DNA of 33,148 nucleotides from a virus (IMGVR_UViG_2681813271_000008), one strand, 5' to 3'; positions 2,634 to 30,118 are shown, counted from the stretch's first letter. Program-made: numbers and translations. The notes: generated by a model from the letters alone, not told the origin.

Positions 2634-3145
2634 TGGCTGTACCAAAACATCTTCGCTTTTTTACGCTGTTTGTGGATGGTGAAAACGAAGTGGGTAAGGT
2701 GACGTCCGTCACTCTGCCTAAGCTGACGCGCAAAACCGACAGCTACCGGGGTGGTGGCATGATGGGAGCGGTAAGTATTGATCTCGGCCTGGATGACTCC
2801 GCGCTTGATGCGAGCTTTGTCATGGGGGGCGCAGTTCGTGAGCTGTTCCTTAAGTATGGCGGCACGATTGACGGTACGCTGCTGCGTTTTGCGGGTGAAT
2901 ACTACACCGACGCTGAAAGCGACCTGTATGAAGTCGAAATGCGCGGACGTGTGACGGAAATTGATATGGGGGAAGCCAAACAGGGCGAAGCCACATCACA
3001 CACTTACGCCATTAAAAACACCTACTACAAGCTGAGTGTTAACGATCGCCCGTTGTGGGAGATTGACCTGCTGAACTTCATTTACCGGAAGGACGGCAGG
3101 GACATTGTGCCCGATCGCATCCGTTCCGCGCTCGGGCTTGGCTGA
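2633..3145 (+). CDS. FII: Tail tube protein (P2 gpFII-like)
   Basis: 170 aa ORF; its ATG overlaps the FI stop (TGATG) and follows GGGAGG; size matches P2 FII. Confidence 0.85.
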   Translation: MAVPKHLRFFTLFVDGENEVGKVTSVTLPKLTRKTDSYRGGGMMGAVSIDLGLDDSALDASFVMGGAVRELFLKYGGTIDGTLLRFAGEYYTDAESDLYEVEMRGRVTEIDMGEAKQGEATSHTYAIKNTYYKLSVNDRPLWEIDLLNFIYRKDGRDIVPDRIRSALGLG

Positions 3146-3199
3146 TAAGTAATATGCAGGCGGCGCAGTGCGTCGCCTCTGACTGAAAGGAGTTTCCTG

Positions 3200-3565
3200 A
3201 TGAAAGAGACGAAAAACATCGATACCGAAAACACGGTCGTTGCTGACACTGTGAAAGAAACCAGTGAGCGTGGCGTAAAACTTACCCAACCAATTGAGCG
3301 AGGCGGCGAAAAAATCACGTATGTGGAGATCACCGGGGCTATTGAGCAGGCTGGATCTCTGCGAGATTTGTCGCTGTCTGATGTGCTGAATTTGAAAGCG
3401 GAATCCATGTTTACGCTGCTGTCACGCGTGACATCACCGCGACTGGATGAAGTGACGATCAAAAAAATGGCATCCCGTGACTTTATTCAGTTATGTGTGG
3501 TTGCCGTAAATTTTTTGAGCGGTGCGGACTCTGGCGAGAAGAACGAACAGGCGACGGAAGCCTGA
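3200..3565 (+). CDS. E: Tail assembly chaperone (P2 gpE-like)
   Basis: 121 aa ORF between tube and tape-measure genes; contains the slippery heptamer used for the E+E' product. Confidence 0.7.
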   Translation: MKETKNIDTENTVVADTVKETSERGVKLTQPIERGGEKITYVEITGAIEQAGSLRDLSLSDVLNLKAESMFTLLSRVTSPRLDEVTIKKMASRDFIQLCVVAVNFLSGADSGEKNEQATEA

Positions 3566-3729
3566 TCACGGTTGTGTGCTTTGAGCACATAGAAGACTTT
3601 GTGGCGGATATTGCCGCCATTTTTAACTGGTCGCCCGCCGAAATCTTCATGATGACGCCCGGCGAAGTGGTTAGCTGGCGTGAGCGGGCGGCACTTCGCA
3701 GCGGGAATGCAGACAATGAAGACTCTTGA
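3200..3729 (+). CDS. Tail assembly chaperone E+E' (predicted -1 programmed frameshift product)
   Basis: Slippery T_TTT_TTG at 3511..3517 sits in the E zero frame (codons TTT TTG); a -1 slip enters the 3493..3729 ORF, which ends just inside the tape-measure start. Analogous to P2 E/E'. Confidence 0.6.
3511..3517 (+). other. Slippery heptamer TTTTTTG for the E/E' -1 frameshift
   Basis: Heptamer read directly; it lies in the overlap between the E frame and the -1 frame ORF. Confidence 0.6.
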
Positions 3730-6523
3730 TATCCGGGTCGCTTTCAGCGCCGTTGACAGGCTGACCCGGCCTGCCGAAAACGCCCGCCGCCTGATGGGGC
3801 AGTTTGGTGACTCCATCCAGCGAACGCAGGGGGCGATCAAAAATCTCGAGCGTCAGGCGCGTTCATTTGAGCGCGCCCGTGACGCTGTCAGTAAAGCGGA
3901 TGCGGGCATCGTGAAAGCACGACGCCAGCTTAACGCCCTTAATCAGTTACAACGCACGGGTACAGTGCTCAGCGAAAAACAACAAAAGCTGATGCAGCAG
4001 TTAAGCACCCGGCTTGAACGCCTGAATGAATCGCGCACACGGGAAATTCAGAAAATGCGGGAACTTGGCGGAGAGCTGAAACGCCACGGCATTTCCCTGA
4101 CAGGCAGCGATAACACCATCCAGCAGGCCATCAGACGCACCGGACAATACAACAACCAGCTTGAACGCGAACGGCGGGCGCTTGCGCGTGTAACGCAGGC
4201 GCGTGAGCGGTATTCACGCGCGCAGGAAACAGCGGGAAAACTGAAAACAGGTGGTGCGCTGGCAACAGGTGCGGCGGCAGCGGGCGGCTATGCTGCCGGG
4301 CGTTTTTTGCAGCCCGCTATCGGGTTCGGGAAAGAGATGTCCCGTGTTCAGGCACTGACGCGAATCGATAAAAACAGCCCGCAGTTTAAGGCGCTGCGTG
4401 AGCAGGCGTTAAAACTTGGCTCTGAAACGCAGTTCACCGCAGGCGATGCCGCCAGTGGACAGGCATTTCTTGCAATGGCTGGTTTCACACCGCAGGCCAT
4501 TCAGGCTGCGCTTCCCGGCGTGCTGAGCATGGCAACGGCTGGCGGTATGGACCTCGGCGAGACGGCGGATATTGGTTCCAATATCCTGACGCAGTTCGGC
4601 CTCTCTGCTGACCAGATGGACCGGGTCGGTGACACACTTACCGCAGCGTTTACCCGTACCAACACTGACCTTCGCGCACTGGGCGAAACCATGAAATATG
4701 CAGGTCCGGTGGCGGGTAAGCTGGGAATATCGCTGGAGCAGGCCGCAGCGATGGCGGGCGTGCTGGCGAAGATGGGTATCAGGGGGAGTGATGCAGGTAC
4801 AGCGTTGCGTAAAAGCCTGGCCAATCTGTCATCACCGCCAAAGGCAGCGGCAGAAGCACTGAAAGAGCTGGGGGTGTCAGTTGCTGACGCCAAAGGCAAA
4901 ATGCGCCCGATGGAGAATGTGCTGGCCGATCTCTATAAAGCCACCCGCAAATACGGGGAGGTTGACCGGGTATCGTTCTTTAAGGACATTGCCGGAGAAG
5001 AGGCTTTCACATCATTTATGGGCCTCGTTGATGCGGCAGGTGACGGCTTCTTAGCCAAACTGAGAAAAGAACTTGAAGGCGCGCGCGGTGAGGCAGAACG
5101 CACGGCAAAGGTTATGGCCAATAACCTTGATGGCAACCTGAAATCACTCGGCAGTGCATGGGAAGGTCTGCGTATTCGCATCAGTGATCTGGTTGACGGT
5201 CCGCTGCGTTCTGTCACGCAGTGGCTCACGCGGGTTGTCTCAAAGGTGACGGCGCTGGCGCAGGCCCACCCGGCACTGACGCGCCAGTTACTGATAGCGG
5301 GAGGCGCACTGCTGGCGACAACAGCAACGGTTGGTTCGTTGTCTCTGGTTATTGGGGTGCTTCACGGGAAGCTGGCTACGTTGCGTCTCGGTTTTTCTCT
5401 CCTGACCGAATCAATGAATGTTGTCAGGGTTCTGCCTGCATTATGGGGAATGGTGACGGGTTCCGTTTCTTTACTTGGTGGCGCTATCGGGGCGCTGTTC
5501 AGTCCGGTTAGTCTTATCGTGGCTGCGCTTGCCGGAGCTGCCGTTCTTATCTGGAAATACTGGGATCCCATCAGGGCATTTTTTGCCGGGGTGTTCAGCG
5601 GGATTATGGAAAGGCTGACCCCGTTGCGCGAAACCTTTGAACGGTTTGGCCCTGTTTTTGATGTCGTGCGCGATGGGATTATTCAGGTCTTTAACTGGTT
5701 TAAATCGCTGCTGTCACCGATGGAGTCCAGCAAGGAAACGCTGGATAAATGTGCCAGTGCTGGCGAGATATTCGGTAACGTTCTTGGCGGTGCGTTACAA
5801 CTTGTTCTGACACCTGCAAAAATGCTACTGGATACGCTGGCGTGGATACTTGAAAAACTTGGCGTCCTTCCGGATGAAGCGGAAAGGGCGCGCAAGAAAA
5901 TCGAAGACGCACAGCGTGCGGCCATTCTTCAGGACAAGGTTGCCTTGCTTCAGGGGGACCTGGCGAAAATCAATCCGCCGAAGCCTGTGGAAAATGGCAA
6001 TGGCACCGGAGGTGATAAACCCAAAGACAACAAACCGCTCACAGACAGCAATACCGGGACGCTACGCAGACTCAGCAAAATTGCTGATAACACAGGTAAG
6101 CTGGTTGATGAGACGAAAAAACGCATTGGCCCCGGCGATATTGTCTTTAAGAACCTGCCCCGCGCACTTGCTGTTCGTGGGGAGTGGCAGGAGCGGAAGA
6201 TTGCGCAGGTCAGTAAGCCTGCCCCCGCAATTAATATCACACCCGTGGTCCCGGCTCCGCTGCCTCCGGCGCTGGTCCCTGTTGTTGCGGCCAGCTCCCG
6301 CCCGGTGGCGGAGGCCATACGCTCTCCAGTGGCATCAGTTCCTGTAACTTCCCGTAACCGGGAGCCTGTTGCCTCCGGATTTGGTGGTGAAATTCATGTT
6401 CATCTGCATAACGTTGTTACGCAGAATCCCCGCGAACTGGCGAAACTGGTCGGTGAAATGGTCAGGGCAGAAATGGAACGGCGCGCCCGTGCCGGGCGTG
6501 GCAGTTTTTACGATAAAGATTGA
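3716..6523 (+). CDS. T: Tail tape measure protein (P2 gpT-like)
   Basis: Long ORF (frame open from 3680), coiled-coil-rich N-terminus and Gly/Ala-rich hydrophobic central segments typical of tape-measure proteins. Start uncertain: ATG at 3707 or 3716, the latter has better GGGA spacing. Confidence 0.85.
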   Translation: MKTLDIRVAFSAVDRLTRPAENARRLMGQFGDSIQRTQGAIKNLERQARSFERARDAVSKADAGIVKARRQLNALNQLQRTGTVLSEKQQKLMQQLSTRLERLNESRTREIQKMRELGGELKRHGISLTGSDNTIQQAIRRTGQYNNQLERERRALARVTQARERYSRAQETAGKLKTGGALATGAAAAGGYAAGRFLQPAIGFGKEMSRVQALTRIDKNSPQFKALREQALKLGSETQFTAGDAASGQAFLAMAGFTPQAIQAALPGVLSMATAGGMDLGETADIGSNILTQFGLSADQMDRVGDTLTAAFTRTNTDLRALGETMKYAGPVAGKLGISLEQAAAMAGVLAKMGIRGSDAGTALRKSLANLSSPPKAAAEALKELGVSVADAKGKMRPMENVLADLYKATRKYGEVDRVSFFKDIAGEEAFTSFMGLVDAAGDGFLAKLRKELEGARGEAERTAKVMANNLDGNLKSLGSAWEGLRIRISDLVDGPLRSVTQWLTRVVSKVTALAQAHPALTRQLLIAGGALLATTATVGSLSLVIGVLHGKLATLRLGFSLLTESMNVVRVLPALWGMVTGSVSLLGGAIGALFSPVSLIVAALAGAAVLIWKYWDPIRAFFAGVFSGIMERLTPLRETFERFGPVFDVVRDGIIQVFNWFKSLLSPMESSKETLDKCASAGEIFGNVLGGALQLVLTPAKMLLDTLAWILEKLGVLPDEAERARKKIEDAQRAAILQDKVALLQGDLAKINPPKPVENGNGTGGDKPKDNKPLTDSNTGTLRRLSKIADNTGKLVDETKKRIGPGDIVFKNLPRALAVRGEWQERKIAQVSKPAPAINITPVVPAPLPPALVPVVAASSRPVAEAIRSPVASVPVTSRNREPVASGFGGEIHVHLHNVVTQNPRELAKLVGEMVRAEMERRARAGRGSFYDKD

Positions 6524-6529
6524 GGAGTC

Positions 6530-7024
6530 ATGGCCATGATGATGATCTACGGCATGTTTGTTTTTGAGCTGCGTACATTGCCGCATCAGCAGTTACAGCA
6601 AAACAAAAGCTGGCGGCATGTGAAAAATGAACGCGTTAACCGTTCGGCAAGCTGGCAGTATATCGGTGCAGGTGATGAGCGCATCGTTCTTTCTGGTGTG
6701 CTTTATCCTGAAATTACAGGTGGCGAAGTGTCGCTGTCGCTGCTGACCACGCAGGCGTATACAGGACGACCCTGGCCTCTGATTGATGGCGTCGGGCAGA
6801 TTTACGGCATGTATGTCCTGACCGAAACGAATACGACCCGCTCCGAGTTTGATCGCTACGGTAAGGCGAAAAAGATAGAATTTTCACTGACTCTTGAACG
6901 CTGTGATGAGGATTTGCGGGAGCGCCTGCAATCCTCATCGTTCAGCGATATGCTGTCCGGCTTCAAAGATAAGGTAACATCATCCCTTAACAGCGCGGCC
7001 AGTTCAGTTAAAGGGTTGTTCTGA
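6530..7024 (+). CDS. U: Tail protein U (P2 gpU-like)
   Basis: 164 aa ORF immediately after the tape measure; N-terminus MAMMMIYGMFVFELRTLP resembles P2 U. Confidence 0.8.
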   Translation: MAMMMIYGMFVFELRTLPHQQLQQNKSWRHVKNERVNRSASWQYIGAGDERIVLSGVLYPEITGGEVSLSLLTTQAYTGRPWPLIDGVGQIYGMYVLTETNTTRSEFDRYGKAKKIEFSLTLERCDEDLRERLQSSSFSDMLSGFKDKVTSSLNSAASSVKGLF

Positions 7025-7036
7025 TTTAACACAAAA

Positions 7037-7070
7037 ACCGCTAATGGTCAGATTAGCGGTTATTTTGTTT
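7037..7070 (+). terminator. Rho-independent terminator after U
   Basis: Stem ACCGCTAAT / ATTAGCGGT with a 6-nt loop, followed by TATTTTGTTT. Confidence 0.6.
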
Positions 7071-7134
7071 CCTGACTCTTCTCTATTGTTCCGATTGATT
7101 CTCCTGCGGGGTGGTAACGATAAATCGTCGATAT

Positions 7135-7454
7135 NNNNNNNNNNNNNNNNNNNNNNNNNNNNNNNNNNNNNNNNNNNNNNNNNNNNNNNNNNNNNNNNNN
7201 NNNNNNNNNNNNNNNNNNNNNNNNNNNNNNNNNNNNNNNNNNNNNNNNNNNNNNNNNNNNNNNNNNNNNNNNNNNNNNNNNNNNNNNNNNNNNNNNNNNN
7301 NNNNNNNNNNNNNNNNNNNNNNNNNNNNNNNNNNNNNNNNNNNNNNNNNNNNNNNNNNNNNNNNNNNNNNNNNNNNNNNNNNNNNNNNNNNNNNNNNNNN
7401 NNNNNNNNNNNNNNNNNNNNNNNNNNNNNNNNNNNNNNNNNNNNNNNNNNNNNN
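7135..7454. other. Assembly gap (320 N) inside the invertase locus
   Basis: Run of N read directly. Confidence 1.
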
Positions 7455-7612
7455 ATTAATTCCTCGCTCCCGTAGTTCCCCGACGAGAGAAATCAGATGT
7501 TTCATGCTTCGCCCGAGGCGATCCAGTTTCCAGACAACCAGCGTGTCACCTTTTTGAAGGCGCTTTAAAGCGCGTTTTAATCCCGGTCGGTCTGTCTTTG
7601 TCCCGCTTAATT
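7455..7612 (-). CDS. Serine DNA invertase (Gin/Cin/Pin family), internal fragment between N-runs
   Basis: Translation [52 protein letters not shown] matches my recollection of Mu Gin residues about 34-85; flanked by N gaps on both sides. Confidence 0.8.
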
Positions 7613-7792
7613 NNNNNNNNNNNACGTGCTGCGGCATAATCCCAATGATTACTCCCTGACAGGGTTCGTAGGCCACTCAATATCAGGTGCAGTTGATGTA
7701 TCAACACGGTTCAGCAACACCCGATACTTTTTCTAGGCTTCCACCACCAGCACGACAAGATGCCGCATACAGTGACCCAGTCAGTCCAGTTT

Positions 7793-7975
7793 TCAGACAA
7801 CCAGTGCGTCACCTTTTTGAAGGCGCTTTAAAGCACGTTTTAATCCAGGTCGGCCTGTCCTTGTTCCGCTTAATTTATCTTCAAATATTTGTTCATATCC
7901 TGCACAAACAAGAGCGTTTCGTTGCAGGTCTGTATTCTGGTCATTTGTTGATACCCTTACATAGCCAATCAGCAC
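7793..7975 (-). CDS. Serine DNA invertase N-terminal fragment (catalytic-serine region), prematurely terminated
   Basis: From a GTG start after [65 protein letters not shown] then a stop; unrelated sequence follows. Confidence 0.8.
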   Translation of the reverse strand: MLIGYVRVSTNDQNTDLQRNALVCAGYEQIFEDKLSGTRTGRPGLKRALKRLQKGDALVV

Positions 7976-8029
7976 GCTGAATCTCCCGTCCAAAAGCGCA
8001 AATCATGCCATGCAGGCCGGAAACGGCCA

Positions 8030-8055
8030 TTATCTAAAACCTCGGTTTACAGGAA
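8030..8055. other. gix-like inversion crossover site (left)
   Basis: TTATCTAAAACCTCGGTTTACAGGAA closely resembles the Mu gix site as I recall it, and is an inverted copy of the site at 11452..11477. Confidence 0.75.
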
Positions 8056-9066
8056 ACGGTAAACAAGGCTGGTAACGCCGTGCAAAAAAATGGCGATACG
8101 TTGTCCGGTGGACTTACTTTTGAAAACGACTCAATCCTTGCCTGGATTCGAAATACTGACTGGGCAAAGATTGGGTTTAAAAATAATTCGGATGCAGACA
8201 CCGATTCCTACATGTGGTTTGAAACAGGCAACAACGGCAATGAATATTTCAAATGGAGACACCGCATCATTGGCACCCGGCCTAAAGACCTGATGAATCT
8301 TAAATGGAATGCTTTGTCTGTTCTTGTTGAAGCCCTTTTCAGCAGTGAAGTGAAAATATCGACAGTCAATGCACTGAGGATATTTAATTCATCTTTTGGT
8401 GCCATTTTTCGTCGTTCTGAAGAATGCCTGCATATCATCCCTACACGAGAGAATGAAGGGGAAAATGGTAATATAGGGCCACTACGCCCCTTTACGCTTA
8501 ATCTCAGAACTGGCCGGATAAGCATGGGGCATGGTCTTGATGTTACAGGGGATATATTTGCAAACCGTTTTGCAATTAACAGTAGTACCGGCATGTGGAT
8601 TCATATGCGTGACCAGAATGTTATTTTGGGACGTAATGCGGTATCCACTGATGGTGCTCAGGCTTTGCTCCGTCAGGACCATGCCGACCGCAAATTTATG
8701 ATTGGCGGTCTGGGAAATAAGCAATTTGGCATCTACATGATTAATAACTCAAGGACAGCCAATGGCACCGATGGTCAGGCGTACATGGATAATAACGGGA
8801 ACTGGCTTTGCGGCTCGCAAGTTATTCCCGGCAACTATGGCAATTTTGATTCCAGATATGTGAAAGATGTTCGACTTGGTTCACAGCAATATTATGGAGT
8901 GAACAACTGGCAAACATGGAATTTTCAGTGCCCGTCAGGCTATGTACTGACGGGGATTAACGTACAGGATACCGGAAAAAACTCTGCCGATAATATTGCA
9001 GGCGTTCATTACAGGCCAGTGCAAAAGTATATAAATGGCACTTGGTATAATGTGGCGAGTATTTAA
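8038..9066 (+). CDS. Alternative tail-fibre C-terminal (variable) cassette, promoterless, in-frame with the crossover site
   Basis: Frame is open from 8038 through the crossover core codons LGL; ORF track calls 8080..9066. Shares [13 protein letters not shown] and INGTWYNV motifs with the C-terminus of H. No independent N-terminal domain. Confidence 0.75.
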
Positions 9067-9488
9067 TATGATGCACTTAAAGAACATAAAAGCAGGTAAT
9101 GCTAAAACAGTGGAGCAGTATGAGTTAACAAAGAAGCACGGAGTCATCTGGCTTTACTCTGAGGACGGAAAAAACTGGTATGAGGAAGTGAAGAACTTTC
9201 AGCCAGACACAATAAAGATTGTTTACGATGCAAATAATATTATTGTCGCCATCACCAAAGATGCCTCCACGCTTAACCCTGAAGGTTATAGCGTCGTTGA
9301 GGTTCCTGATATTACAGCTAATCGTCGTGCTGATGATTCCGGTAAGTGGATGTTTAAGGACGGAGCTGTGGTTAAACGGATTTATACGGCTGACGAACAG
9401 CAACAACAGGCCGAATCACAAAAGGCCGCATTGCTTTCCGAAGCTGAATCAGTCATCCAGCCGCTGGAACGCGCTGTCAGGCTGAATA
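9035..9488 (+). CDS. Tail fibre assembly protein (Tfa / gpG-like), 3' end cut by an N-run
   Basis: About 75% identical to the next Tfa gene and similar to the minus-strand G; overlaps the end of the alternative fibre cassette. Confidence 0.75.
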
Positions 9489-9495
9489 NNNNNNN

Positions 9496-9978
9496 GAACA
9501 ATACCAGCTAACTAAAAAAGCGGGCGTGGTATGGCTCTTTTGCGAAGATGGCAAAAACTGGTATGAGGAACAAAAGAATTTTCAGCCAGACACCATAAAA
9601 ATTGCTTACGATGAGAACAACATCATCGTTGCTGTCAGTAAAGACGTTTCAACTATTAATCCTGAAGGGCTAAGCATAGTTGAAGTTCCTGATATTACGG
9701 CAAATCGTCACGCAGACAATAACGGAAAATGGATGTTTCTGGATGGTAAAGTAGTAAAGAGGGAATATACAGAACAGGAACTGCAACAACAGGCCGAATC
9801 ACAAAAGGCCGCATTGCTTTCCGAAGCTGAATCAGTCATCCAGCCGCTGGAACGCGCTGTCAGGCTGAATATGGCAACAGACGAGGAACGCACACGACTG
9901 GAAGCATGGGAACGCTACAGTGTTCTGGTCAGCCGTGTGGATACGGCAAATCCTGAATGGCCACAAAAGCCTGAATAA
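9496..9978 (+). CDS. Second tail fibre assembly protein (Tfa), 5' end lost in an N-run
   Basis: Frame open from the gap ([15 protein letters not shown]...); the ORF track's GTG at 9526 is internal. Shares an identical stretch of about 88 bp with the 3' end of the previous Tfa. Confidence 0.75.
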
Positions 9979-9983
9979 AAATT

Positions 9984-10003
9984 AAGGCCCGATAGCGGGC
10001 CTT
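9984..10003. terminator. Hairpin between convergent Tfa genes (likely bidirectional terminator)
   Basis: AAGGCCCG ATAG CGGGCCTT perfect 8-bp stem; T-rich run follows on the minus strand. Confidence 0.5.
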
Positions 10004-10006
10004 CTC

Positions 10007-10540
10007 TCATTCTGGTTGTTCGGGAAACGTTACTGGCAGGCTGGAGGTGTCTGTGGATTCAACCTTCTGCGCATAGAGCATCCACTCGGTTAATTTTTGT
10101 TTATTCTCATCGGAAATGATGCCCAGCTGTAGCTGAGAGTCCCACAGCTGGGTTTTATCCCTGACGAGCTGCAGCAGGCTCTGCTTTTCATTTTCCGCTT
10201 GTTGCCTTTGCTCTTCCTCGGTATAAGTTCGCTTTATCACCGCACCATCTTTGAACATCCAGTTGCCCGAAATATCAGCCCGGCGATTTGCTGTAATATC
10301 AGGCAACTCAACGACACTTAAACCTTCTGGATTAATTGCTGATACATCCTTGTCTATAGCAATAATTATTCCCTCAACTGTGTAAGCCAGTTTTATTGTA
10401 TCCTCCTGAAAGTTTTTTAATTCCTCATGCCAATTTTTTCCATCTTCGGACCATAACCAGATAACATCAAAATTCTTTGTTAGCTGGTATTGTTCAACGG
10501 TTTTTGGATTACCTGCGACAATGTTTTTTAAATGCTGCAT
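10007..10540 (-). CDS. G: Tail fibre assembly protein G (P2 gpG-like)
   Basis: 177 aa ORF directly downstream of the tail-fibre gene; homologous to the plus-strand Tfa ORFs. Confidence 0.8.
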
Positions 10541-10542
10541 GA

Positions 10543-10692
10543 TTATACCTGCGATACGTTATACCATGTTCCGTTAATTAACTTTTGTATTGGTCTGAAT
10601 ACTGCCGGATCATCACCATCGACTTCACCGATAATACCAAGCCCCGTGATTACATGGCCTGATTTTTCATACATCACGCCTTTCTTCATGGT
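10543..10692 (-). other. In-frame continuation of tail fibre H beyond an amber codon (49 codons, conserved C-terminus)
   Basis: Same frame as H after the TAG at 10693..10695: [49 protein letters not shown], then TAA 2 nt before the G start. Aligns with the C-terminus of the alternative cassette. Confidence 0.6.
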
Positions 10693-12477
10693 CTAAACAA
10701 CTCGTGTGCCAAGTCTGACATCTCTCACATAGCGGGAATCAAAGTTACCGTAATCCGAGGGATTAACACGTCCCGTAATATTTATGGTTTTATTACTTTG
10801 AATGCTTCCGGAGACAAAGCGCATAACATGGACGTTATTAGCATAAACATCCAGATTACCATCGCCTTTTTGTTTAAAGCCCGTGTCATTATCACCCAAT
10901 ACAATCGAATTACCGCCAAGAGCACTGGATGTTCCGATACCCAGTGCACCATTCAGTTGACCACCAGATAACGGCAGTGCACCAACATCTCCTGCTGAAG
11001 GTTTTCTGGTGGTGTAAAATTCGGACCAGTCGGCTTCAAAACCATAACCATCACGGGCTGAACGATAAAAAATACCGCCATTTTTATAATTAATCCGAAA
11101 CTGAGCTGCAGGACAACTTCCTTCTCCCATATAAAAATGAATAATTAACGTTGATGCACCACTAATAGTTGCGTTATAGGCTCCGCTACTCCAGTTCCAT
11201 CCAACTGCTTTATCATTCGCAACGGTGCTTCCTGTTTTCCCTAAGGCAAACGCACCAACATGACTTGCTTTTAATGTGATATCGGAGGAACCATCAAAAG
11301 CCACATTGCTTATTTTCCTGGCAGTTTTTAATTTTGCAGCTGTAGAAGCATTGCCGGATAGTTCACCAGAAAGGCCACCGCTGAATGTTTGTCGATTAGT
11401 CCAGGTATTCGCTGTACTGAGTAACGGTATTTTCTCCCCGCTTGTGCCGAGTTCTCGTAAACCGAGGTATTCGATAACGGCAGCAACGGTCGATTTCGCA
11501 AGAATATCCCGCCCGACTTTTGTCAGGGTTGCCAGGCTGGCGACATCATTCCCCGTAAAATACGGAAACTTGCCTGCCGCAGTAGTAAGTCCGGCCAGCG
11601 CCGTCAGGGTGGCATCTTTCGGTTGCTTACCCGCAAGCGCGTTAGTCATGGTGGTCGCAAAATTCGGGTCGTTGCCCAGCGCCGCCGCCAGCTCGTTCAG
11701 TGTGTTCAGTGCATCAGGCGAAGAGTCTACAAGTGCGGCAATCGCAGCCATAACGAAAGCCGTGCTTGCGATTTGGGTATTATTCGTTCCCTGTCGCGCA
11801 GTTGGTGTTGTTGGCGTTCCGGTCAGTGCCGGGCTGTTTAATGGGGCTTTCTTGTTCGTTTCATCCATTACTGCCTTAACGGCTTTTGGTGTCGCTGCCA
11901 GCGTTTCAGACGTGCTGTTGGTGGCGTTGCTGAGCTGGACAAGGCCTTTTGCGGTCAGCGAGGCGTCCGGGTGACGTCGTGACTGTTCATGCTCTTTCAG
12001 TTTGTCATCCACGTAATTCACTGTGGCCATCACCATGGTGTTATCCACGGTAAGCGCCACAGTGGCAGTGCTGGATACGGTCAGAATGGTGCGAAATGTT
12101 TGTGCACGTCCGGATCCTTCGGCAACGGTTGGCTTGTAACTTTCGGCAGTATTGCCTACCGCGATCAAATCGCCGTGCTCATCAAACACACCAATTTCCC
12201 GGATCCAGAATCCGCCCGTTTCAGGAGGAATAACCAGCTCCGCAATAATGTGGTTCTGATGTGTTGCGTCCAGGGTGACGCGATTAACGGTATGTCGCCA
12301 CACCTCATGCACAAGACGGGTCTGCTTACTGTCTGGCGTGGGTAAAGTACCGCCGCCGTCACCCACGGCCATATGTGTCAGGCGGACAGGTTTCCCATCT
12401 GGCGCGGTTGCCTGCGCTAATTTTTTTGCACCCGTATCGGTGATAATGGTTTTAAATTTTCGTGTTGTGGTACTCAT
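10693..12477 (-). CDS. H: Tail fibre protein H (P2 gpH-like), interrupted by an in-frame amber codon
   Basis: 594 aa ORF. Constant N-terminal part runs from 12477 to the crossover site near 11452..11477 (EYLGL); variable part follows. Stop TAG at 10693..10695 lies inside a conserved C-terminal region. Confidence 0.85.
   Translation of the reverse strand: MSTTTRKFKTIITDTGAKKLAQATAPDGKPVRLTHMAVGDGGGTLPTPDSKQTRLVHEVWRHTVNRVTLDATHQNHIIAELVIPPETGGFWIREIGVFDEHGDLIAVGNTAESYKPTVAEGSGRAQTFRTILTVSSTATVALTVDNTMVMATVNYVDDKLKEHEQSRRHPDASLTAKGLVQLSNATNSTSETLAATPKAVKAVMDETNKKAPLNSPALTGTPTTPTARQGTNNTQIASTAFVMAAIAALVDSSPDALNTLNELAAALGNDPNFATTMTNALAGKQPKDATLTALAGLTTAAGKFPYFTGNDVASLATLTKVGRDILAKSTVAAVIEYLGLRELGTSGEKIPLLSTANTWTNRQTFSGGLSGELSGNASTAAKLKTARKISNVAFDGSSDITLKASHVGAFALGKTGSTVANDKAVGWNWSSGAYNATISGASTLIIHFYMGEGSCPAAQFRINYKNGGIFYRSARDGYGFEADWSEFYTTRKPSAGDVGALPLSGGQLNGALGIGTSSALGGNSIVLGDNDTGFKQKGDGNLDVYANNVHVMRFVSGSIQSNKTINITGRVNPSDYGNFDSRYVRDVRLGTRVV
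11452..11477. other. gix-like inversion crossover site (right, inside H)
   Basis: Reverse complement TTATCGAATACCTCGGTTTACGAGAA matches the 8030..8055 site at 22 of 26 positions; the core CTC GGT TTA encodes LGL in the H frame and in the alternative cassette frame. Confidence 0.75.
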
Positions 12478-12479
12478 GC

Positions 12480-13010
12480 TTAATCGTCCGGATAAATGGT
12501 AATGACTTCACCGTCGTAAGTTGCTGCTGCCGCGAAAATATCTCCCTGAATCTCCTGAATGATATTCAGCCCTGTCATGTGGCGGCTGACCGGGCGGGCA
12601 TCAGCAATCAACCGCTCCATTTCCAGATACATTTCCTCCGTCACGCCACTGTCCAGCGTGCCAACATCAATCTTGAATGTTCCGGGTTCGCCGTTGAACT
12701 CCCACCACTCAGACACGCGAATGAGGTATCCCAGCGGCTCAATGGCCCGTCGCAGGGCGCTGATGGTTCCTTTGTGTCGGTGTATCAGCCATGCATCACG
12801 AATCACCTGTCGCTTTGTCTCTTCCGGCCAGTTGCGATCCCAGCGGTCAACGGAAAACGCCCAGGCGAGATAAGGCAGCAGATGCACCGGGCAGGTGTCC
12901 GGCGACCACAGCGTGTTGAGGTCTGCCGGAATGTCTGTAATGCGTGTTCCGACGGCTTCGGCACAACGCATGAAATTGCTGGCTGATGGTGGTAACAGTG
13001 AATTACTCAT
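12480..13010 (-). CDS. I: Baseplate/tail-fibre attachment protein I (P2 gpI-like)
   Basis: Start at ATG 13008..13010 (MSNSLLPP) preceded by GGTGG, 2 nt after the J stop; 176 aa, the same length as P2 I. Confidence 0.85.
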   Translation of the reverse strand: MSNSLLPPSASNFMRCAEAVGTRITDIPADLNTLWSPDTCPVHLLPYLAWAFSVDRWDRNWPEETKRQVIRDAWLIHRHKGTISALRRAIEPLGYLIRVSEWWEFNGEPGTFKIDVGTLDSGVTEEMYLEMERLIADARPVSRHMTGLNIIQEIQGDIFAAAATYDGEVITIYPDD

Positions 13011-13899
13011 TACGCCCACCTTCGCTGATGGTGAATGACTCACAGCGCGCCGCCTGTATGTCGCTGATGGCCATATTCTGTGTGGGTTCGATTATCTCCA
13101 CGCGTTGCACACCGTGCACATGCAGTGCGGCAGCAATGGCGGACAACGCCACGTCCTGACCGATAAGCCCCTGCTCAGCCAGCCACTTCCTGAACGACGA
13201 TTCAGCCGCAGCCAGAATAGGTTCGGATTCCGGACCGGGGTAAAAGTACAGTTTTGCATTCAGCCGCCATGTCACGATTCTGGCACTCTGTACGGTCAGG
13301 CGGTCGGCCACCGGGCGGGTATCCTCTGCATTCAGAACGGCGCGAACGGTATTAAGCAACGCCTCCGTTGCTGTGCCGTCGCCCTCAGTGGACAGGATGG
13401 AAACCGTCACATTTGCCGGAGACGGACTGATGGCCCGCGCATCGCGCACCAGACCGCTGGCGCTGCGGGCAAAATACTCGTATGCGCCTGACGGGCCTGC
13501 AACACTCAGGCCGTCATACGCCCGCTGCGCCCGCAGTCTCAGCGAGGTGTCGTTCTCCATCACCACGTCGGTGGTATCCGTTGCCGGAGTGATAACCAGG
13601 CGCTTTGTGTTCATATTGCCCGCGAGGTTGTCCAGGTCTGTTCCGGCGCTGTGGCTCAACATGCAGGCGCGTGCGGCCTCATTGACCCGCTGGCGTAACA
13701 GCATTTCACGAAACGACATGGTTTGAGCGATAACGTTCAGGGGTTCCGATTCCAGTTCCAGTGCGGCGGAGACGACTTCACGCTGTTCGGCGGGATAAGC
13801 TGCAATCATCATGGCCTTTGTGTCAGCCAGAATTGCCTCAAAGTCAGGCTCCGCGATGATGGCGGGTTCCGGTAACTGGGAAAGGTCAACGGCAGGCAT
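13003..13899 (-). CDS. J: Baseplate assembly protein J (P2 gpJ-like)
   Basis: 298 aa ORF in the V-W-J-I order. Confidence 0.85.
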   Translation of the reverse strand: MPAVDLSQLPEPAIIAEPDFEAILADTKAMMIAAYPAEQREVVSAALELESEPLNVIAQTMSFREMLLRQRVNEAARACMLSHSAGTDLDNLAGNMNTKRLVITPATDTTDVVMENDTSLRLRAQRAYDGLSVAGPSGAYEYFARSASGLVRDARAISPSPANVTVSILSTEGDGTATEALLNTVRAVLNAEDTRPVADRLTVQSARIVTWRLNAKLYFYPGPESEPILAAAESSFRKWLAEQGLIGQDVALSAIAAALHVHGVQRVEIIEPTQNMAISDIQAARCESFTISEGGRNE

Positions 13900-13902
13900 G
13901 AT

Positions 13903-14253
13903 TTACTCCCTCAGCGTGATGGTTAATTCAACATTCTGCATGGTCTGCATGACAGTGCCCGACAGCGTCACCCCGGCGTGGCCTCCTGCCTTCCAGACAA
14001 CGTCGATGGCGTTCAGGGCAATGCGTGGTTCCCATCGTGTCAGTGCAATCACGGTAGCACTCATGCATTGCAGACGCGTGGTGTTATTCATGGGTTCGTC
14101 AATCAAATCAGGCACAAGGCTGCCATATTCCCGTCGCATAACCCGGCTTGCCAGCGGGGTGGTCAGGATGTCCCTGACTGACTGTTTCAGGTGCGCCATA
14201 TCGTTCAGGTTTCCCGTCCCGTCCGGGTTCATTCCTGTGTAGCGGGTTGTCAC
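13903..14253 (-). CDS. W: Baseplate assembly protein W (P2 gpW-like)
   Basis: 116 aa ORF between V and J. Confidence 0.85.
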   Translation of the reverse strand: MTTRYTGMNPDGTGNLNDMAHLKQSVRDILTTPLASRVMRREYGSLVPDLIDEPMNNTTRLQCMSATVIALTRWEPRIALNAIDVVWKAGGHAGVTLSGTVMQTMQNVELTITLRE

Positions 14254-14831
14254 TGCGGGCCTCCTGTCGAATCGCTGCCACCTTTAACGCCACCGTGCTT
14301 ATGCGTATGCACTGTGATGCCGTTTGAGGTGAAATCGCCGCCGCTGTGCGTGATATTGCCGCTCATCGTTCCCCCTTTTGTGACGTCAAGCGTCGCTGTT
14401 CTCAGAAGGTCTGTGCATTCCACGACAGGCGTGTTCAGTGTCACGCTGATGGATGCCTGCAAAGTGGCCGTTTTCATGCCGCTTGCGCTCAGTGCGCCTG
14501 CGTCCGCGTCGTAGCGGAACACCGCGCCGTCCGGCGCGCTGACCACGATTTCTTTCAGGCTTTTGCCGGGTGCCGGAATGGCATCACTCCACAGGCTGCC
14601 GATTATCATGGCGGTTTCCGGGTTGCCGCCGATGCAGGCAATTGCCACCTGTTCGCCTGGTGATGGCGGAAACCACACGTTGAAGTCTCCCGCGCGCGTG
14701 GTGTTCCAGCGCAGCCAGCCTGTTTCCAGTTCGCCGCTGCGAACGCGCACGCACCAGGATTCCTCATCAACTTCAGAGATGATCCCGGTGCGGATGATAT
14801 TGCTCAGCAGTCGCATGAGTTCTGCGCTCAT
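14250..14831 (-). CDS. V: Baseplate spike protein V (P2 gpV-like)
   Basis: 193 aa; motifs IRTGII, GEQV, FPDGAV, KGGTM.GNI.H.GG and HTHKH match my recollection of P2 V. Confidence 0.85.
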   Translation of the reverse strand: MSAELMRLLSNIIRTGIISEVDEESWCVRVRSGELETGWLRWNTTRAGDFNVWFPPSPGEQVAIACIGGNPETAMIIGSLWSDAIPAPGKSLKEIVVSAPDGAVFRYDADAGALSASGMKTATLQASISVTLNTPVVECTDLLRTATLDVTKGGTMSGNITHSGGDFTSNGITVHTHKHGGVKGGSDSTGGPQ

Positions 14832-15463
14832 CGTACAGCCTCCGCAATCCGGCCCAGCACCGTGTTATAAATCAGGCGCTCATCTGCCTGGCTGATACCC
14901 AGCAGCTCACGTACCGGGTAATCGGTGAAAATGCCCGGCGCAACCTGATCGCGCTCACCGAACTGATGAACGCGTGCAATACGTGCGGCCACGCCGCTGT
15001 AACCCACCGTCACACCGGAAGCATCTGCACGGGCTTTCAGGTAGCGGGCGGTGCGCAGTTTTACGAACATGGAGACGCGCCTGGTGCTGTCCTGGTTGAT
15101 GCGCCGGGTGCGTATTTCCAGAAAACGGTCGATGTCATCCCGGTAAAACGTGCGGATATTGTTTTTATCCTCATCCCACCCGGTGATGGTTCGCCCGTAT
15201 TTCCCCGTGTCGTGATGCCAGTTTTTCAGCGTGCGTGCTTCGTTATTCCAGATAAAGCGAATGCGCTCCTGTATCCGGGTTACGCGGCGTCTGCGTGGTG
15301 TCCATGCGGTCCCGTCCGGCGCTTTCTGTGACCGGATACGCGCCTGCTGGGCGCGGCGTAAATCCTGTGCCAGCTTTCTGGCGATGTTATTAATGGCCTG
15401 CTGATTCAGGCTGTCGCGGATAGCCTCAAAGGTTTCATCCACGCGGGTGAATGCCTTATCCAT
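14828..15463 (-). CDS. S: Tail completion / virion morphogenesis protein (gpS position)
   Basis: 211 aa ORF between R and V, overlapping both; longer than P2 S (150 aa), so called by position. Confidence 0.6.
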   Translation of the reverse strand: MDKAFTRVDETFEAIRDSLNQQAINNIARKLAQDLRRAQQARIRSQKAPDGTAWTPRRRRVTRIQERIRFIWNNEARTLKNWHHDTGKYGRTITGWDEDKNNIRTFYRDDIDRFLEIRTRRINQDSTRRVSMFVKLRTARYLKARADASGVTVGYSGVAARIARVHQFGERDQVAPGIFTDYPVRELLGISQADERLIYNTVLGRIAEAVR

Positions 15464-16200: not shown

Positions 16201-16468
16201 CTGTCGTGATATCGTTGCGTAGCTGTTCACGTCGGATTTCCCCTTCCTGTTGTCGGTTCTGGCGCGCTGTCATGACGTCACGCAGTACACCGGATGCGGT
16301 GCTGATGATGGTGCCGGCCTCTTTCAGGGTCCGGCTGTAATCGTCCAGTTGCGCCTGTGTATAACGGTTGTGTCCGTCTTCCTGCCCCAGTCTGAATGTC
16401 TGCCAGAGTGTTATGGTCAGCAGCGTGAGGACGGTCAGTGCCATCATCAGGATGTAACGCACTTTCAT
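15995..16468 (-). CDS. Inner-membrane spanin (Rz / LysB-like)
   Basis: N-terminal transmembrane helix (ILMMALTVLTLLTITLW) followed by a charged, helical periplasmic domain; downstream of the endolysin. Confidence 0.65.
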   Translation of the reverse strand: MKVRYILMMALTVLTLLTITLWQTFRLGQEDGHNRYTQAQLDDYSRTLKEAGTIISTASGVLRDVMTARQNRQQEGEIRREQLRNDITTDACARAVPDARFTERLHQHAERVRAAAVVPFHPGRADRPRTSPAVSGDAIMGKHRDMERQPHGRTGNL

Positions 16469-16553
16469 GACTGGCCTCCGGTGTCACGTAAGCACCATGC
16501 ACGAAAATCAGTACGACGGTTAACCAGTCCCTGTGAGCGTTCGCCGCCGCTGT

Positions 16554-17009
16554 TCACGAAGTCAGTCTGTTGCACATGTCAGGCCAGTTGTGCGCCTGTG
16601 CATGTTTCCAGATAGTGGTGCGGTGGTAGTTACGGTTCTTATCCCTGAACCACATAAGATTTCTGCATCCAAGATTAAAGGCGGCATCTGTCATTGCCTC
16701 AAACGCGGACTGTGGCATGGCGTTGCCGCTGAAGTTCTGATTTATGCAGTTTTCTGCATGTTGCATATCATTAACCCAGCGCCCGGCGACTTCCGTTTCG
16801 GTGTACAGACGATTTTCCACATGCCCGGTCGAGCCGCACCCCACGGTCATTACCCCGGCAATATCCCGGTAAGGCGTTGCGCGACAGTCCTCCCATGTGG
16901 CAATGCGGATTTGCGCTTCCGGGCTGGTCCGGAGTTTGTGAGGGGCAATGGAGAACCCCAGCGCCACAATGGCGGCTACGGCGTAACGTTTAACGGGCAG
17001 CTTTATCAT
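16554..17009 (-). CDS. K: SAR endolysin (phage lysozyme, T4-lysozyme-type)
   Basis: Catalytic pattern E-x8-D-x5-T visible in WEDCRATPYRDIAGVMTVGCG; N-terminal hydrophobic signal-anchor-release-like segment AVAAIVALGFSIA. Confidence 0.75.
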   Translation of the reverse strand: MIKLPVKRYAVAAIVALGFSIAPHKLRTSPEAQIRIATWEDCRATPYRDIAGVMTVGCGSTGHVENRLYTETEVAGRWVNDMQHAENCINQNFSGNAMPQSAFEAMTDAAFNLGCRNLMWFRDKNRNYHRTTIWKHAQAHNWPDMCNRLTS

Positions 17010-17292
17010 GTGTATCGTTATCCCGCAGAATGTTCAGAGCCTGACGCTCACTGTCGTGAAGTGGCCGTGCGTCTGACTGCGCCAGGATACTGGCGATGAG
17101 TTCATTGCGACGCTGCATGGCGGTTTCCATCAGGCGGCGATGTCGCCAGGCATGTAATGCAGACAGAGAACCGAGTAACAACCCGGCAAGGGCGATTTTT
17201 TCACTGATGGTCATCACGCCTATTGTGGTGGCTGTGACTGATGCCCAGAAGGTGATCCAGTCACTCACCCGCAGAAAAAAACCTGTTACCAT
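16990..17292 (-). CDS. Y: Holin (probable pinholin partner of the SAR endolysin)
   Basis: About 100 aa from the ATG at 17292; two predicted transmembrane segments; stop overlaps the endolysin start. The ORF track's longer version (to 17499) overlaps X. Confidence 0.6.
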   Translation of the reverse strand: MVTGFFLRVSDWITFWASVTATTIGVMTISEKIALAGLLLGSLSALHAWRHRRLMETAMQRRNELIASILAQSDARPLHDSERQALNILRDNDTHDKAAR

Positions 17293-18019: not shown

Positions 18020-18093
18020 NNNNNNNNNNNNNNNNNNNNNNNNNNNNNNNNNNNNNNNNNNNNNNNNNNNNNNNNNNNNNNNNNNNNNNNNNN
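18020..18093. other. Assembly gap (74 N) between L and M
   Basis: Run of N read directly. Confidence 1.
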
Positions 18094-21031: not shown

Positions 21032-22849
21032 ATGATTCAGGACGCTTTTGTGCGCCAGCGTGCGCGGCAACTTTACTGGCAGGGTTATCCGCCCGCAGAA
21101 ATATCACGTCTGATGGGAATAAACCCGAACACGATTTATGCGTGGAAAAAACGCGACCAGTGGGATGAAACGCCACCCGTGCAGCGTGTCACGCAGTCCA
21201 TCGATGCGCGCCTCATCCAGCTTACTGAAAAACAGAATAAAACAGGTGGTGACTTTAAGGAAATAGANNNNNNNNNNNNNNNNNNNNNNNNNNNNNNNNN
21301 NNNNNNNNNNNNNNNNNNNNNNNNNNNNNNNNNNNNNNNNNNNNNNNNNNNNNNNNNNNNNNNNNNNNNNNNNNNNNNNNNNNNNNNNNNNNNNNNNNNN
21401 NNNNNNNNNNNNNNNNNNNNNNNNNNNNNNNNNNNNNNNNNNNNNNNNNNNNNNNNNNNNNNNNNNNNNNNNNNNNNNNNNNNNNNNNNNNNNNNNNNNN
21501 NNNNNNNNNNNNNNNNNNNNNNNNNNNNNNNNNNNNNNNNNNNNNNNNNNNNNNNNNNNNNNNNNNNNNNNNNNNNNNNNNNNNNNNNNNNNNNNNNNNN
21601 NNNNNNNNNNNNNNNNNNNNNNNNNNNNNNNNNNNNNNNNNNNNNNNNNNNNNNNNNNNNNNNNNNNNNNNNNNNNNNNNNNNNNNNNNNNNNNNNNNNN
21701 NNNNNNNNNNNNNNNNNNNNCGATGTGGAGCTGAAAGGGGGCGATAAAATCATCCTCTCCAACGGCGCAGAGATGCATTTTCTCGGCACTTCTGCTGCGA
21801 CGGCGCAATCTTACACGGGCAATTTTTATTTTGATGAATTTTTCTGGGTCAGTCGCTTTGCTGAACTGCGCAAGGTGGCTGGCGCTATGGCAACCCTCAG
21901 CGGACTGCGGCGCACCTGCTTCTCCACGCCATCCACCGAAACGCACGAGGCATACGCCTACTGGAACGGCGACCGCTGGAACGAGAAAAAGGCCGCGCAT
22001 AAACGCCAGCGTTTTTCTGTGGACTGGAAAACGCTGCATAACGGGCTTATCTGCCCTGACCGGACGTGGCGGCAAATTGTCACGCTGGAAGATGTGGTTA
22101 ATCACGGCTGGAAACACACCGATATTGATGAAATTCGTGATGAAAACACCGAAGACGAGTTCCGCAATCTCTATATGTGTGAGTTTGTCCGCGAAGGGGA
22201 ATCGGCATTTAACCTGAATATCCTGATTGGCTGCGGTGTTGACGGATACGACGACTGGAAAGACTGGAAACCCTTTGCCCCCCGCCCGATGGGGAATCGT
22301 CCGGTATGGATTGGGTATGACGCAAACGGCAGCAGTGGTAACGGCGACAGCGGCGCTGTGTCCGTGGTGGTTCCTCCGGCTGTTCCTGGTGGTCGTTTCA
22401 GAACGGTGGAGACGCGACGCGTTCAGGGGCTGGAATTTGAAGAGCAGGCCAGAGTTATTGAAGAGTTCACGTATCGCTACAACGTGGAACACATCGGCAT
22501 TGATGCGACGGGAGGGCACGGGGATGCCGTCTATCAGATAGTGAAACGGTTTTTTCCCGCCGCCATCCCTTACACCTTCACGCTGTCATCAAAACGGTCG
22601 CTGGTACTGAAAATGCTGCAAATAATGCGTGCCGGGCGGTGGGAATACGATCGCGCCGAACGCGAGCTGGTTGCGGCCTTTAACGCCGTGCGTAAGGTGA
22701 AAACACCGGGCGGTTTTATCACTTACGAAACGGACCGCGCGAGGGGGATCAGCCACGGCGACCTTGCGTGGGCAACCATGCTTGCTGTCATTAACGAACC
22801 GATTGGCGGCGAAGGAGAAAACGAGCGTTTCACGGTTATGGAGTTCTGA
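21032..22849 (+). CDS. P: Terminase large (ATPase) subunit P (P2 gpP-like), interrupted by a 453-N gap
   Basis: 605-codon frame open across the N-run; N-terminal and C-terminal parts present; divergent from O as in P2. Confidence 0.8.
   Translation: MIQDAFVRQRARQLYWQGYPPAEISRLMGINPNTIYAWKKRDQWDETPPVQRVTQSIDARLIQLTEKQNKTGGDFKEIXXXXXXXXXXXXXXXXXXXXXXXXXXXXXXXXXXXXXXXXXXXXXXXXXXXXXXXXXXXXXXXXXXXXXXXXXXXXXXXXXXXXXXXXXXXXXXXXXXXXXXXXXXXXXXXXXXXXXXXXXXXXXXXXXXXXXXXXXXXXXXXXXXXXXXXXDVELKGGDKIILSNGAEMHFLGTSAATAQSYTGNFYFDEFFWVSRFAELRKVAGAMATLSGLRRTCFSTPSTETHEAYAYWNGDRWNEKKAAHKRQRFSVDWKTLHNGLICPDRTWRQIVTLEDVVNHGWKHTDIDEIRDENTEDEFRNLYMCEFVREGESAFNLNILIGCGVDGYDDWKDWKPFAPRPMGNRPVWIGYDANGSSGNGDSGAVSVVVPPAVPGGRFRTVETRRVQGLEFEEQARVIEEFTYRYNVEHIGIDATGGHGDAVYQIVKRFFPAAIPYTFTLSSKRSLVLKMLQIMRAGRWEYDRAERELVAAFNAVRKVKTPGGFITYETDRARGISHGDLAWATMLAVINEPIGGEGENERFTVMEF
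21268..21720. other. Assembly gap (453 N) inside terminase P
   Basis: Run of N read directly. Confidence 1.
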
Positions 22850-24346: not shown

Positions 24347-24386
24347 TTTATAAAATCAACTAAAAAACACCTAGTGTGACTTACCT

Positions 24387-24572
24387 CTACCACTCGATCG
24401 GCACGTAGTCATTAAGTTCCGGAGACCAATTGCACTTTTCACATCTGTGTTTTCCATTCTGGCAGATACATAAACGATAACGGCCACAATGCGGGCACCC
24501 ATTTTCACCATTATCATAATCACCGAGCGACCATTCCTGCATAAGCAGCTCTTCTTCATCATCATTTAGCAT
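24387..24572 (-). CDS. Hypothetical small Cys-rich protein (61 aa, possible zinc ribbon)
   Basis: Strong RBS AGGGGG 5 nt upstream of the ATG; acidic N-terminus, then C-x2-C-x5-C-x-C-x6-C-x2-C. Confidence 0.5.
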   Translation of the reverse strand: MLNDDEEELLMQEWSLGDYDNGENGCPHCGRYRLCICQNGKHRCEKCNWSPELNDYVPIEW

Positions 24573-24586
24573 TAATCCCCCTTGAG

Positions 24587-24826
24587 CTATTTACTCTTCT
24601 CGGCCCTCAAAATCATACGAGAACCATCATCCAGCTCCCAATTAATTTCACCGCCTTCTGCCATGACTAGATGCCAAACGAGTTGAGCGGCCTCGTTGGT
24701 TACATCGCGACCGCGATCATTTCCTACGCGGCGTTTTGTTCCGTCTCCTAAGTCACGCATTTTTGCCAATACGATGGTTTTTGATAGCGGTGAAAAACCA
24801 AGCTGTAGTCGTGCTGAATTACTCAC
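24587..24826 (-). CDS. Hypothetical protein (79 aa)
   Basis: ORF whose start overlaps the stop of the upstream 174-aa ORF by 4 nt; 14 bp ahead of the 61-aa gene. Confidence 0.5.
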   Translation of the reverse strand: MSNSARLQLGFSPLSKTIVLAKMRDLGDGTKRRVGNDRGRDVTNEAAQLVWHLVMAEGGEINWELDDGSRMILRAEKSK

Positions 24827-25347: not shown

Positions 25348-25407
25348 CGTGTTTTCCTCGTGCGGGGCGACAGTGCACCCCGATAAAATTAAAAGCCGTC
25401 AAATTCG

Positions 25408-29977: not shown

Positions 29978-30118
29978 TGCGGCAATCCTCTTGTTACAGA
30001 TGTGCGAAGGCCTCCCGCCGCAAGGTGCAGGAAAGGCCCGGAACAGGAATTAATGGAGTTTGTTTTGCTGCCGGATGAGCTGCTGAAGCCCGACGTGGTT
30101 TCCGGCAGTTGGAGGTGC

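Follow-up and report, generated by a model that had tools for sequence, protein, structure and literature searches.

A Gin-type invertible tail-fibre segment in a P88-like Escherichia coli prophage scaffold whose unusual features probably stem from draft assembly

Here we have analysed a 33,148-base stretch of viral DNA, IMGVR_UViG_2681813271_000008 (the whole of which we call the window), following up an earlier note that had proposed, from the sequence alone, a Gin-type invertible segment with its crossover inside the tail-fibre gene H. We consider it likely that the window contains a canonical invertible tail-fibre segment of the Din family (Gin/Cin/Pin) in a P88-like, P2-family prophage of Escherichia coli, and that the unusual features of this segment are assembly artefacts. 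To judge from its relatives, the real prophage most likely has an intact invertase of 195 amino acids (aa) and, like those relatives, a segment of about 3.04 kb with two cassettes. The odd features of the sequence as deposited, namely a broken invertase, an extra assembly-protein gene and a segment size of 3.4 kb, are probably products of gaps and collapsed repeats in a draft assembly.

Switching of fibre tips by Gin-type inversion has been textbook material since Mu and P1, and the system described here is already known in kind: records of P88-like phages annotate it, and it has been measured in P2-like prophages of E. coli. The wider significance concerns draft genomes. Short-read scaffolds interleave paralogous loci precisely at invertible, multi-copy phage cassettes, and 'broken invertases', 'extra cassettes' and oversized segments in such genomes should be compared with N runs and with closed relatives before they are interpreted.

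Crossover sites and alternative fibre tips

An inverted repeat of 30 nt, 83% complementary, occupies positions 8026-8055 and 11452-11481. The two 26-mers that it contains, TTATCTAAAACCTCGGTTTACAGGAA (8030-8055, plus strand) and TTATCGAATACCTCGGTTTACGAGAA (11452-11477, minus strand), are identical at 22 of 26 positions, as the earlier note had counted, and have a common central TC. They have the form of Din-family sites, that is, two imperfect palindromes of about 26 bp in inverted orientation with an identical central dinucleotide. A degenerate consensus found exactly these two sites in the 33 kb and gave no match in 100 shuffles, which excludes a chance resemblance. We also made the alignment to gix that the earlier note had suggested as a check: the Mu record AF083977 has TTATCCAAAACCTCGGTTTACAGGAA at both annotated boundaries of the G segment, from which the left site differs by one mismatch and the right site at four bases, with the central TC kept. 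All ten relatives examined have the same sites at the same positions. A shufflon-like system, in which at least three sites bracket more than two cassettes, was considered and set aside: at up to 7 mismatches two sites, and no third, were found in the whole window, within which the N gaps are unread sequence.

The right site lies within H at about codons 334-342, where it reads VIEYLGLRE, and at the left site the reading frame of the silent cassette continues in frame right after a TAA stop. The proposal that LGL is in frame on both sides was therefore correct. So was the description of the alternative cassette as promoterless, as no promoter-like site was found between the left site and the cassette. 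Inversion in silico at the central TC fuses the cassette to codon 340 of H and yields an intact open reading frame (ORF) of 678 aa; the present H has 594 aa, and the first 340 residues are common to both products. The arrangement is that of a Mu-G-type segment, with the crossover inside the fibre ORF and two in-frame C-terminal parts, each accompanied by a co-inverted assembly gene. The predicted exchange of fibre tip and assembly protein is supported not only by this fusion in silico but by its occurrence as a real 678-aa gene (99% identity) in E. coli FDAARGOS_943.

A second relative, L011 (AAUVNX010000034), provides the complementary orientation. It has an intact 195-aa invertase with Resolvase and HTH_7 domains and a two-cassette segment, and it is 100% identical to the window over 3000-7134, 7455-7612, 7897-9488 and 11609-15400; L016, which differs from it in one gene call only, has been seen in at least 20 samples. 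L011 and FDAARGOS_943 carry one and the same segment (99.8% identity) in opposite orientations between these sites, and L011 flipped in silico aligns with FDAARGOS_943 as a single high-scoring segment pair of 10.3 kb. The flipped junction between the constant part of H and the cassette is contiguous in 355 complete genomes, in one of them at 99.0% identity. Inversion between these sites occurs in this lineage, and we infer that the segment would also flip in this particular strain. Goldberg et al. 2014 (PMC4272514) detected both orientations side by side in two P2-like prophages of enteropathogenic E. coli (EPEC) E2348/69, of which one has three sites; their demonstration of inversion in P2-like E. 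coli prophages used sequencing reads, and that for e14 used PCR.

The expressed part of the FDAARGOS_943 fibre matches the silent cassette at 99.7% identity, and the cassettes of Mu, SfMu and P1/P7 match it at 85-91% in DNA. The exact 328-aa product of the silent cassette is present in 341 indexed blocks of a public collection, and the nine places returned for this product are all P88-like prophages. An intact 195-aa invertase stands beside the cassette in seven of the nine, these being the places that include the upstream flank, with an insertion sequence (IS) element between the two in some.

The variable part of H in the present orientation (Hv) matches that of a lambdoid side-tail-fibre in E. 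coli NCTC86 at about 95% identity. The expressed tip is interrupted by an amber codon, TAG at 10693-10695, where the NCTC86 homologue has CAG and reads through; the 49 conserved C-terminal codons that follow are still intact and in frame. An identical truncated H of 594 aa was found in one other assembly only, FUDN01000043, which shares the amber. The amber implies that in this lineage a full-length fibre would be produced from the flipped state only. Of the host-range switching that the earlier note had derived from the segment, the Gin/gix-type switch of the fibre C-terminus stands, and the consequence for host range is doubtful in one orientation, in which the expressed tip has the premature amber.

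Between 9496 and 11608 the window has a different tip and a different assembly-protein gene (tfa) from L011; over this interval FUDN01000043 is identical except at two positions, and the NCTC86 lambdoid fibre is about 95% identical. The constant part of H departs from L011 at seven points, all of them in 11482-11608 and at most 130 nt from the right site, and the identity beyond 11608 holds for at least 3.8 kb. We interpret 11482-11608 as the right edge of a cassette replacement that ran slightly beyond the crossover site.

The invertase gene, the assembly-protein genes and the scaffold gaps

The window equals one complete whole-genome shotgun (WGS) record, CXCM01000025.1, from assembly GCA_001256555.1. 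Across most of 174-31615 it aligns collinearly, at 91-97% identity, with coliphage P88 (Xuanwuvirus, Peduoviridae), and this collinearity is broken by the variable segment, at 16250-17288 and 24349-25406, and by a gap on the P88 side at 30092/30108. Membership of Xuanwuvirus is indicated by a gene order that matches annotated P88 (NC_026014) together with this high-identity collinear genome. Locally, genes for a tape measure protein (3680-6523, plus strand) and a gpU-like tail protein (6530-7024, plus strand) are followed by the DNA invertase gene (minus strand), the segment, and H, I, J and W (all minus strand). The order around the segment is the same in P88, 503458 and 520873, where a 'DNA invertase' is annotated.

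Six N runs interrupt the window (7135-7454, 7613-7623, 9489-9495, 18020-18093, 21268-21720 and 27013-27026), and all breaks in homology with relatives coincide with N runs. Three of the runs are longer by 40-66 nt than their P88 counterparts (320 versus 255, 74 versus 34 and 453 versus 387 nt). Length-preserving masking was considered as the origin of the runs and rejected because lengths are off from P88 and L011 by this amount and the window is a WGS scaffold. The disagreement with P88 therefore marks them as scaffold gaps of estimated size.

The serine invertase that had been placed just outside the left site is recognizable there, the first 258 nt of the repaired gene being 96.5% identical to Mu gin; as assembled, it is only a 66-codon N-terminal piece followed by a remnant and gaps. 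Read leftward, the literal assembly consists of this piece (7793-7993), about 160 nt without invertase homology, 11 N, a middle part of 158 nt, 320 N and the last 24 codons, and the downstream continuation of the 66-codon piece is riddled with stops. Deletion of 7613-7875 restores one reading frame, VLIGYVRVSTNDQ...ELRERGIN, with Ser9, and the repaired product shows a single difference (C27Y) from the intact 195-aa protein of the relatives L010 and L011. In a Pfam profile search on six proteins, the reconstructed N-terminal part of 86 residues matched Resolvase (E = 6e-29); the 195-aa invertase of the relative is 80.5% identical to Gin. Once the insert is removed, 86 N-terminal and 24 C-terminal residues can be read, with the remainder falling within the 320-N gap. 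The counterpart of this gap is 255-258 nt in P88, L001 and L011, and the excess of 65 nt accounts for the apparent change of frame.

The insert has its closest parallels at the ends of lambdoid prophages. We considered 7624-7784 as a degenerate continuation of the invertase and rejected this, since a tfa-fragment remnant at such ends matches it at 100% identity. A Rac-type lambdoid prophage end in NCTC86 is 100% identical to 7624-7800 and 99% identical to 7624-8050, and is annotated there as a partial tfa and a partial recombinase adjoining a gix site. The same remnant motif stands beside gpJ-lom-stf in strain CT30, which matches the whole of piece Z (7624-9488) at 92%, with a tfa fragment, a recombinase N-terminus of 60-66 aa, a gix site and a silent cassette. 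In complete genomes, however, these ends lie beside gpJ-lom-stf and never beside P88-type T, U and invertase genes. Compared with L011, piece Z has mismatches only at 7793-7865 and 7896, and the middle piece of L011 overlaps positions equivalent to 7785-7875. The invertase 5' end and left site (7897-8063) form an exact repeat of 167 nt between P88-type and remnant-type loci, which is long enough to merge both loci in a short-read assembly graph. The junction between piece Y, the invertase middle, and piece Z did not occur in any of the 5426 complete E. coli genomes, and exact-pattern scans of genome contigs and viral contigs gave no match to the 7612/7624 junction.

A comparable pattern is seen at the second gap. 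The segment had appeared to hold more than one alternative assembly-protein gene, a view that our comparison does not sustain: in the scaffold, a tfa that lacks its C-terminal end is joined over the 7-N gap, out of frame, to a paralogue that lacks its N-terminal end. The tfa that starts at 9068 halts at this gap after ...ERAVRLN, and the paralogue resumes out of frame about 15 codons in. The 89 nt at 9400-9488 are 100% identical to 9783-9871, so that they recur 383 nt downstream. Such a pattern is the mark left when two paralogues run together in a collapsed repeat and one branch stays dangling. Splicing of 9488 to 9872 gives an in-frame protein of 175 aa (Caudo_TAP, E = 1e-37), as in L011, and the true 3' end of the gene is most likely 9872-9978. 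The tfa part at 9489-9782 is identical to the draft contig FUDN01000043, where it follows a different cassette of 280 aa; it may be a stray branch belonging to a second locus, or else represent an alternative silent cassette for which the scaffold lacks the fibre part. The segment size of about 3.4 kb likewise probably has to be revised. The literal distance from site to site, which includes the stray branch at the 7-N gap, is 3422 bp and would be an outlier among the relatives; on removal of the gap (9489-9495) and the paralogous branch of 376 nt it becomes 3039 bp, compared with 2714-3072 bp in eight relatives including Mu.

Table 1. Coordinates of the features in and around the invertible segment
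Feature	Position	Strand	Remarks
Invertase 3' end	7060-7134	-	Last 24 codons, ...ISTIYRYHPAGESIGTIEKSQETK and stop; identical to C-terminus of L010/L011 invertase
Assembly gap, 320 N	7135-7454	.	Replaces about 255 nt: end of catalytic domain and most of HTH
Invertase middle, piece Y (...ELRERGIN)	7455-7612	-	100% identical to L011, 99.4% to P88
Insert of 263 bp, probably artefactual	7613-7875	.	11-N gap, lambdoid prophage-end remnant and paralogous invertase copy
Lambdoid prophage-end remnant (tfa fragment)	7624-7784		Within insert
Paralogous, stop-riddled copy of invertase codons ~41-70	7785-7875		Within insert
Invertase 5' end	7876-7975	-	GTG start at 7975, VLIGYVRVSTNDQ..., catalytic Ser9
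Left crossover site, gix-like	8030-8055	+	TTATCTAAAACC TC GGTTTACAGGAA; identical in P88, L007, L008 and L011
Silent alternative fibre C-terminus (Sv'-type cassette, ...NVASI)	8038-9066	+	Without own start codon or promoter
tfa (Caudo_TAP), partner of silent cassette, 5' 421 nt	9068-9488	+	100% identical to L011 up to 9488
7-N gap and paralogous tfa 5' part lacking first ~15 codons	9489-9782	+	71% identical to 9113-9412
Common 3' end of plus-strand tfa gene(s)	9783-9978	+	Exact repeat with end of piece Z; 9783-9875 identical to L011
GC-rich terminator-like hairpin between convergent tfa genes	9984-10003	.	
tfa of expressed tip, 177 aa	10007-10540	-	Caudo_TAP, E = 5e-34; annotated tfa in relatives
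Last 49 codons of expressed tip, own stop	10543-10692	-	Severed from H by in-frame amber
Variable C-terminal part of H, present orientation (Hv)	10693-11451	-	gp37_C domain match; inside segment
Right crossover site inside H	11452-11477	-	TTATCGAATACC TC GGTTTACGAGAA (minus-strand reading); encodes IEYLGLRE
Constant N-terminal part of H (P2 gpH-like)	11478-12477	-	Phage_tail_fib and Phage_fiber_2 domains

Proposed mechanism and competing readings

In gin, the recombinational enhancer, which consists of two Fis sites in cis, lies within the 5' part of the gene. By homology, a putative Fis-dependent enhancer is expected at 7876-7975. The small serine invertase, transcribed leftward from 7975, would bind both inverted 26-bp sites as dimers, and host Fis on the enhancer in the 5' end of the invertase gene would enter a synapse with these dimers, which would form a tetramer. 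Both sites would be cut at the central TC/GA with covalent serine linkage, one dimer would rotate by 180 degrees and the ends would be religated, such that about 3.0 kb is flipped. The constant 340 codons of H would then be joined either to the present tip, with the tfa at 10007-10540, or to the silent tip at 8038-9066, with the tfa from 9068, and receptor specificity would be changed. For catalysis, the role of Fis and the enhancer, this scheme draws on the near-identity to gin; the Fis-dependent mechanism has been described for Gin and Hin (PMC3575834, PMC3798978).

The scaffold is most simply modelled as an L011-type prophage in which a patch has taken the place of the expressed cassette (tfa 3' end, tfa and Hv). 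The stray branches 7624-7875 and 9496-9782 would have come from a second gix-bearing locus; an E. coli genome typically has about three such places. This second locus would be a lambdoid prophage end with a truncated invertase, threaded into the scaffold at the exact repeats of 167 nt and 89-93 nt. Several points weigh against this account. The amber codon in the expressed tip hints at decay, most of the helix-turn-helix (HTH) domain of the invertase falls in a gap, and the connectivity over the three gaps is inferred. The left end of piece W, at 9496, fits no exact repeat: among the tfa copies in the window and FUDN01000043, the longest repeat that could explain a start at this point, 45 nt into tfa, is 18 nt. 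This end may be a gap-filling product. Finally, in both piece Z and the gap-free FUDN01000043 the lambdoid remnant runs on into the left site, which could reflect a real rearrangement.

Such a rearrangement between prophages, in which a P88-like prophage and a lambdoid end recombined in or near their gix sites, whether through Gin-type recombination in trans or through homologous recombination within the 167-nt core, seems to us unlikely. Its consequence would be an H side flanked by a truncated invertase remnant, with the intact invertase elsewhere and acting in trans. Continuity of piece Z, from the remnant through the left site to the P88-type cassette, agrees with this reading, as does the switch of homology at or near the sites. 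So does FUDN01000043, a gap-free draft contig of another assembly with an identical H, which runs from remnant through segment to P88-type late genes. Yet neither type of junction stands beside P88-type genes in the 5426 complete genomes, the 167-nt exact repeat could mislead short-read assemblers, and P88-type invertase pieces are also present in the scaffold, immediately to the left. The FUDN01000043 arrangement itself, with the remnant beside a P88-type H, was likewise found in 0 of 5426 complete genomes, and its best closed-genome matches all set in at the shared core of the invertase, with a complete recombinase. This outcome favours a mis-join shared by the two assemblies. If the rearrangement were real, flanks of invertible segments would have been swapped between two prophages of one chromosome, one P88-like and one lambdoid; a large chromosomal inversion would split the P88-like prophage, and the fibre switch would depend on an invertase in trans.

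We find it more improbable again that the scaffold is literally correct and represents a decaying prophage, with an invertase disrupted by 263 bp that were inserted or duplicated and with an out-of-frame fusion of two assembly genes. In that case the segment would be locked unless another Pin-type invertase acts in trans. This is what the sequence says as written, and both the amber codon in H and the IS-disrupted left sites of related prophages, which indicate that such loci decay, are in keeping with it. However, both junctions fall at N runs of unreliable length, there is an 89-nt exact overlap, the flanks are 100% identical to an intact relative and the junction is present in none of the complete genomes. 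A chance similarity of the inverted 26-mers, without any recombination function, is refuted by the shuffles, by the single mismatch from Mu gix, by positions conserved in ten of ten relatives and by the occurrence of the segment in nature in both orientations between these sites.

Relation to known systems and further observations

On the preferred reading of a canonical segment distorted by assembly, the system is assigned to the Mu G segment family by site sequence, invertase sequence and architecture. As in the G segment, crossover takes place within the fibre gene, the invertase is encoded immediately beyond one of the sites, and two convergent pairs of fibre tip and assembly gene make up about 3.0 kb in total; in DNA, the silent cassette and tfa genes share about 85% identity with Mu Sv/U/U'. 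Here, however, a P2-family (P88-like) prophage and not Mu is the host element, the constant part resembles P2 gpH and has 340 aa rather than the 169 aa of Mu Sc, and the present expressed tip is not Mu-like in DNA and carries an amber codon. The P88-like prophages (P88, 503458 and 520873) and the P2-like prophages of EPEC E2348/69 agree with the window in the order of their genes (T, U, invertase, silent tip, tfa, tfa, H, I, J, W), in 96-100% DNA identity outside the cassettes and in having identical sites. The present copy differs from them in pairing an L011-type silent cassette with another tip, the identical protein being present in one other assembly only.

The C segment of P1/P7 (Cin) and the P segment of e14 (Pin) share the Fis-dependent invertase family and the switching of fibre tips but belong to other phage backbones. 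The C segment of P7 matched 37% of the query at 85.6% identity and naturally has more than one assembly gene (U', Ua and Ub). The apparent presence of more than one assembly gene would also suggest a system of the kind of Min of p15B or the three-site P2-like shufflon of EPEC, whereas here two sites only were found and the extra tfa is best read as a collapsed repeat.

Some further features were observed at the scaffold gaps and the sites. The gap at 21268-21720 is within a region collinear with the P88 terminase large-subunit gene, and ORFs spanning the gaps at 18020-18093, 21268-21720 and 27013-27026 are unreliable. In FUDN01000043 (L006; reverse strand, 289-323), a hairpin with an 11-bp stem, CCGCAGCACGT TCTTGCTTAAG ACGTGCTGCGG, precedes the remnant; in the window, piece Z begins exactly at the 3' arm of this hairpin (position 7624), and the N run before it is 11 nt, equal to the loop.

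Five P88-like relatives (L012, L013, L014, L018 and L019), three of them in closed genomes, have an IS3-family element between the invertase and the silent cassette. The left gix site has lost its outer 7 nt to this element and reads ACACCTCAAACC TC GGTTTACAGGAA (site at 5951-5976, 865-890 or 590-615 of these relatives). Insertion of IS3 into the left site should lock the segment, and sites disrupted in this way represent one route by which such switches become locked. A second IS copy lies within the minus-strand tfa in L012, L014 and L018.

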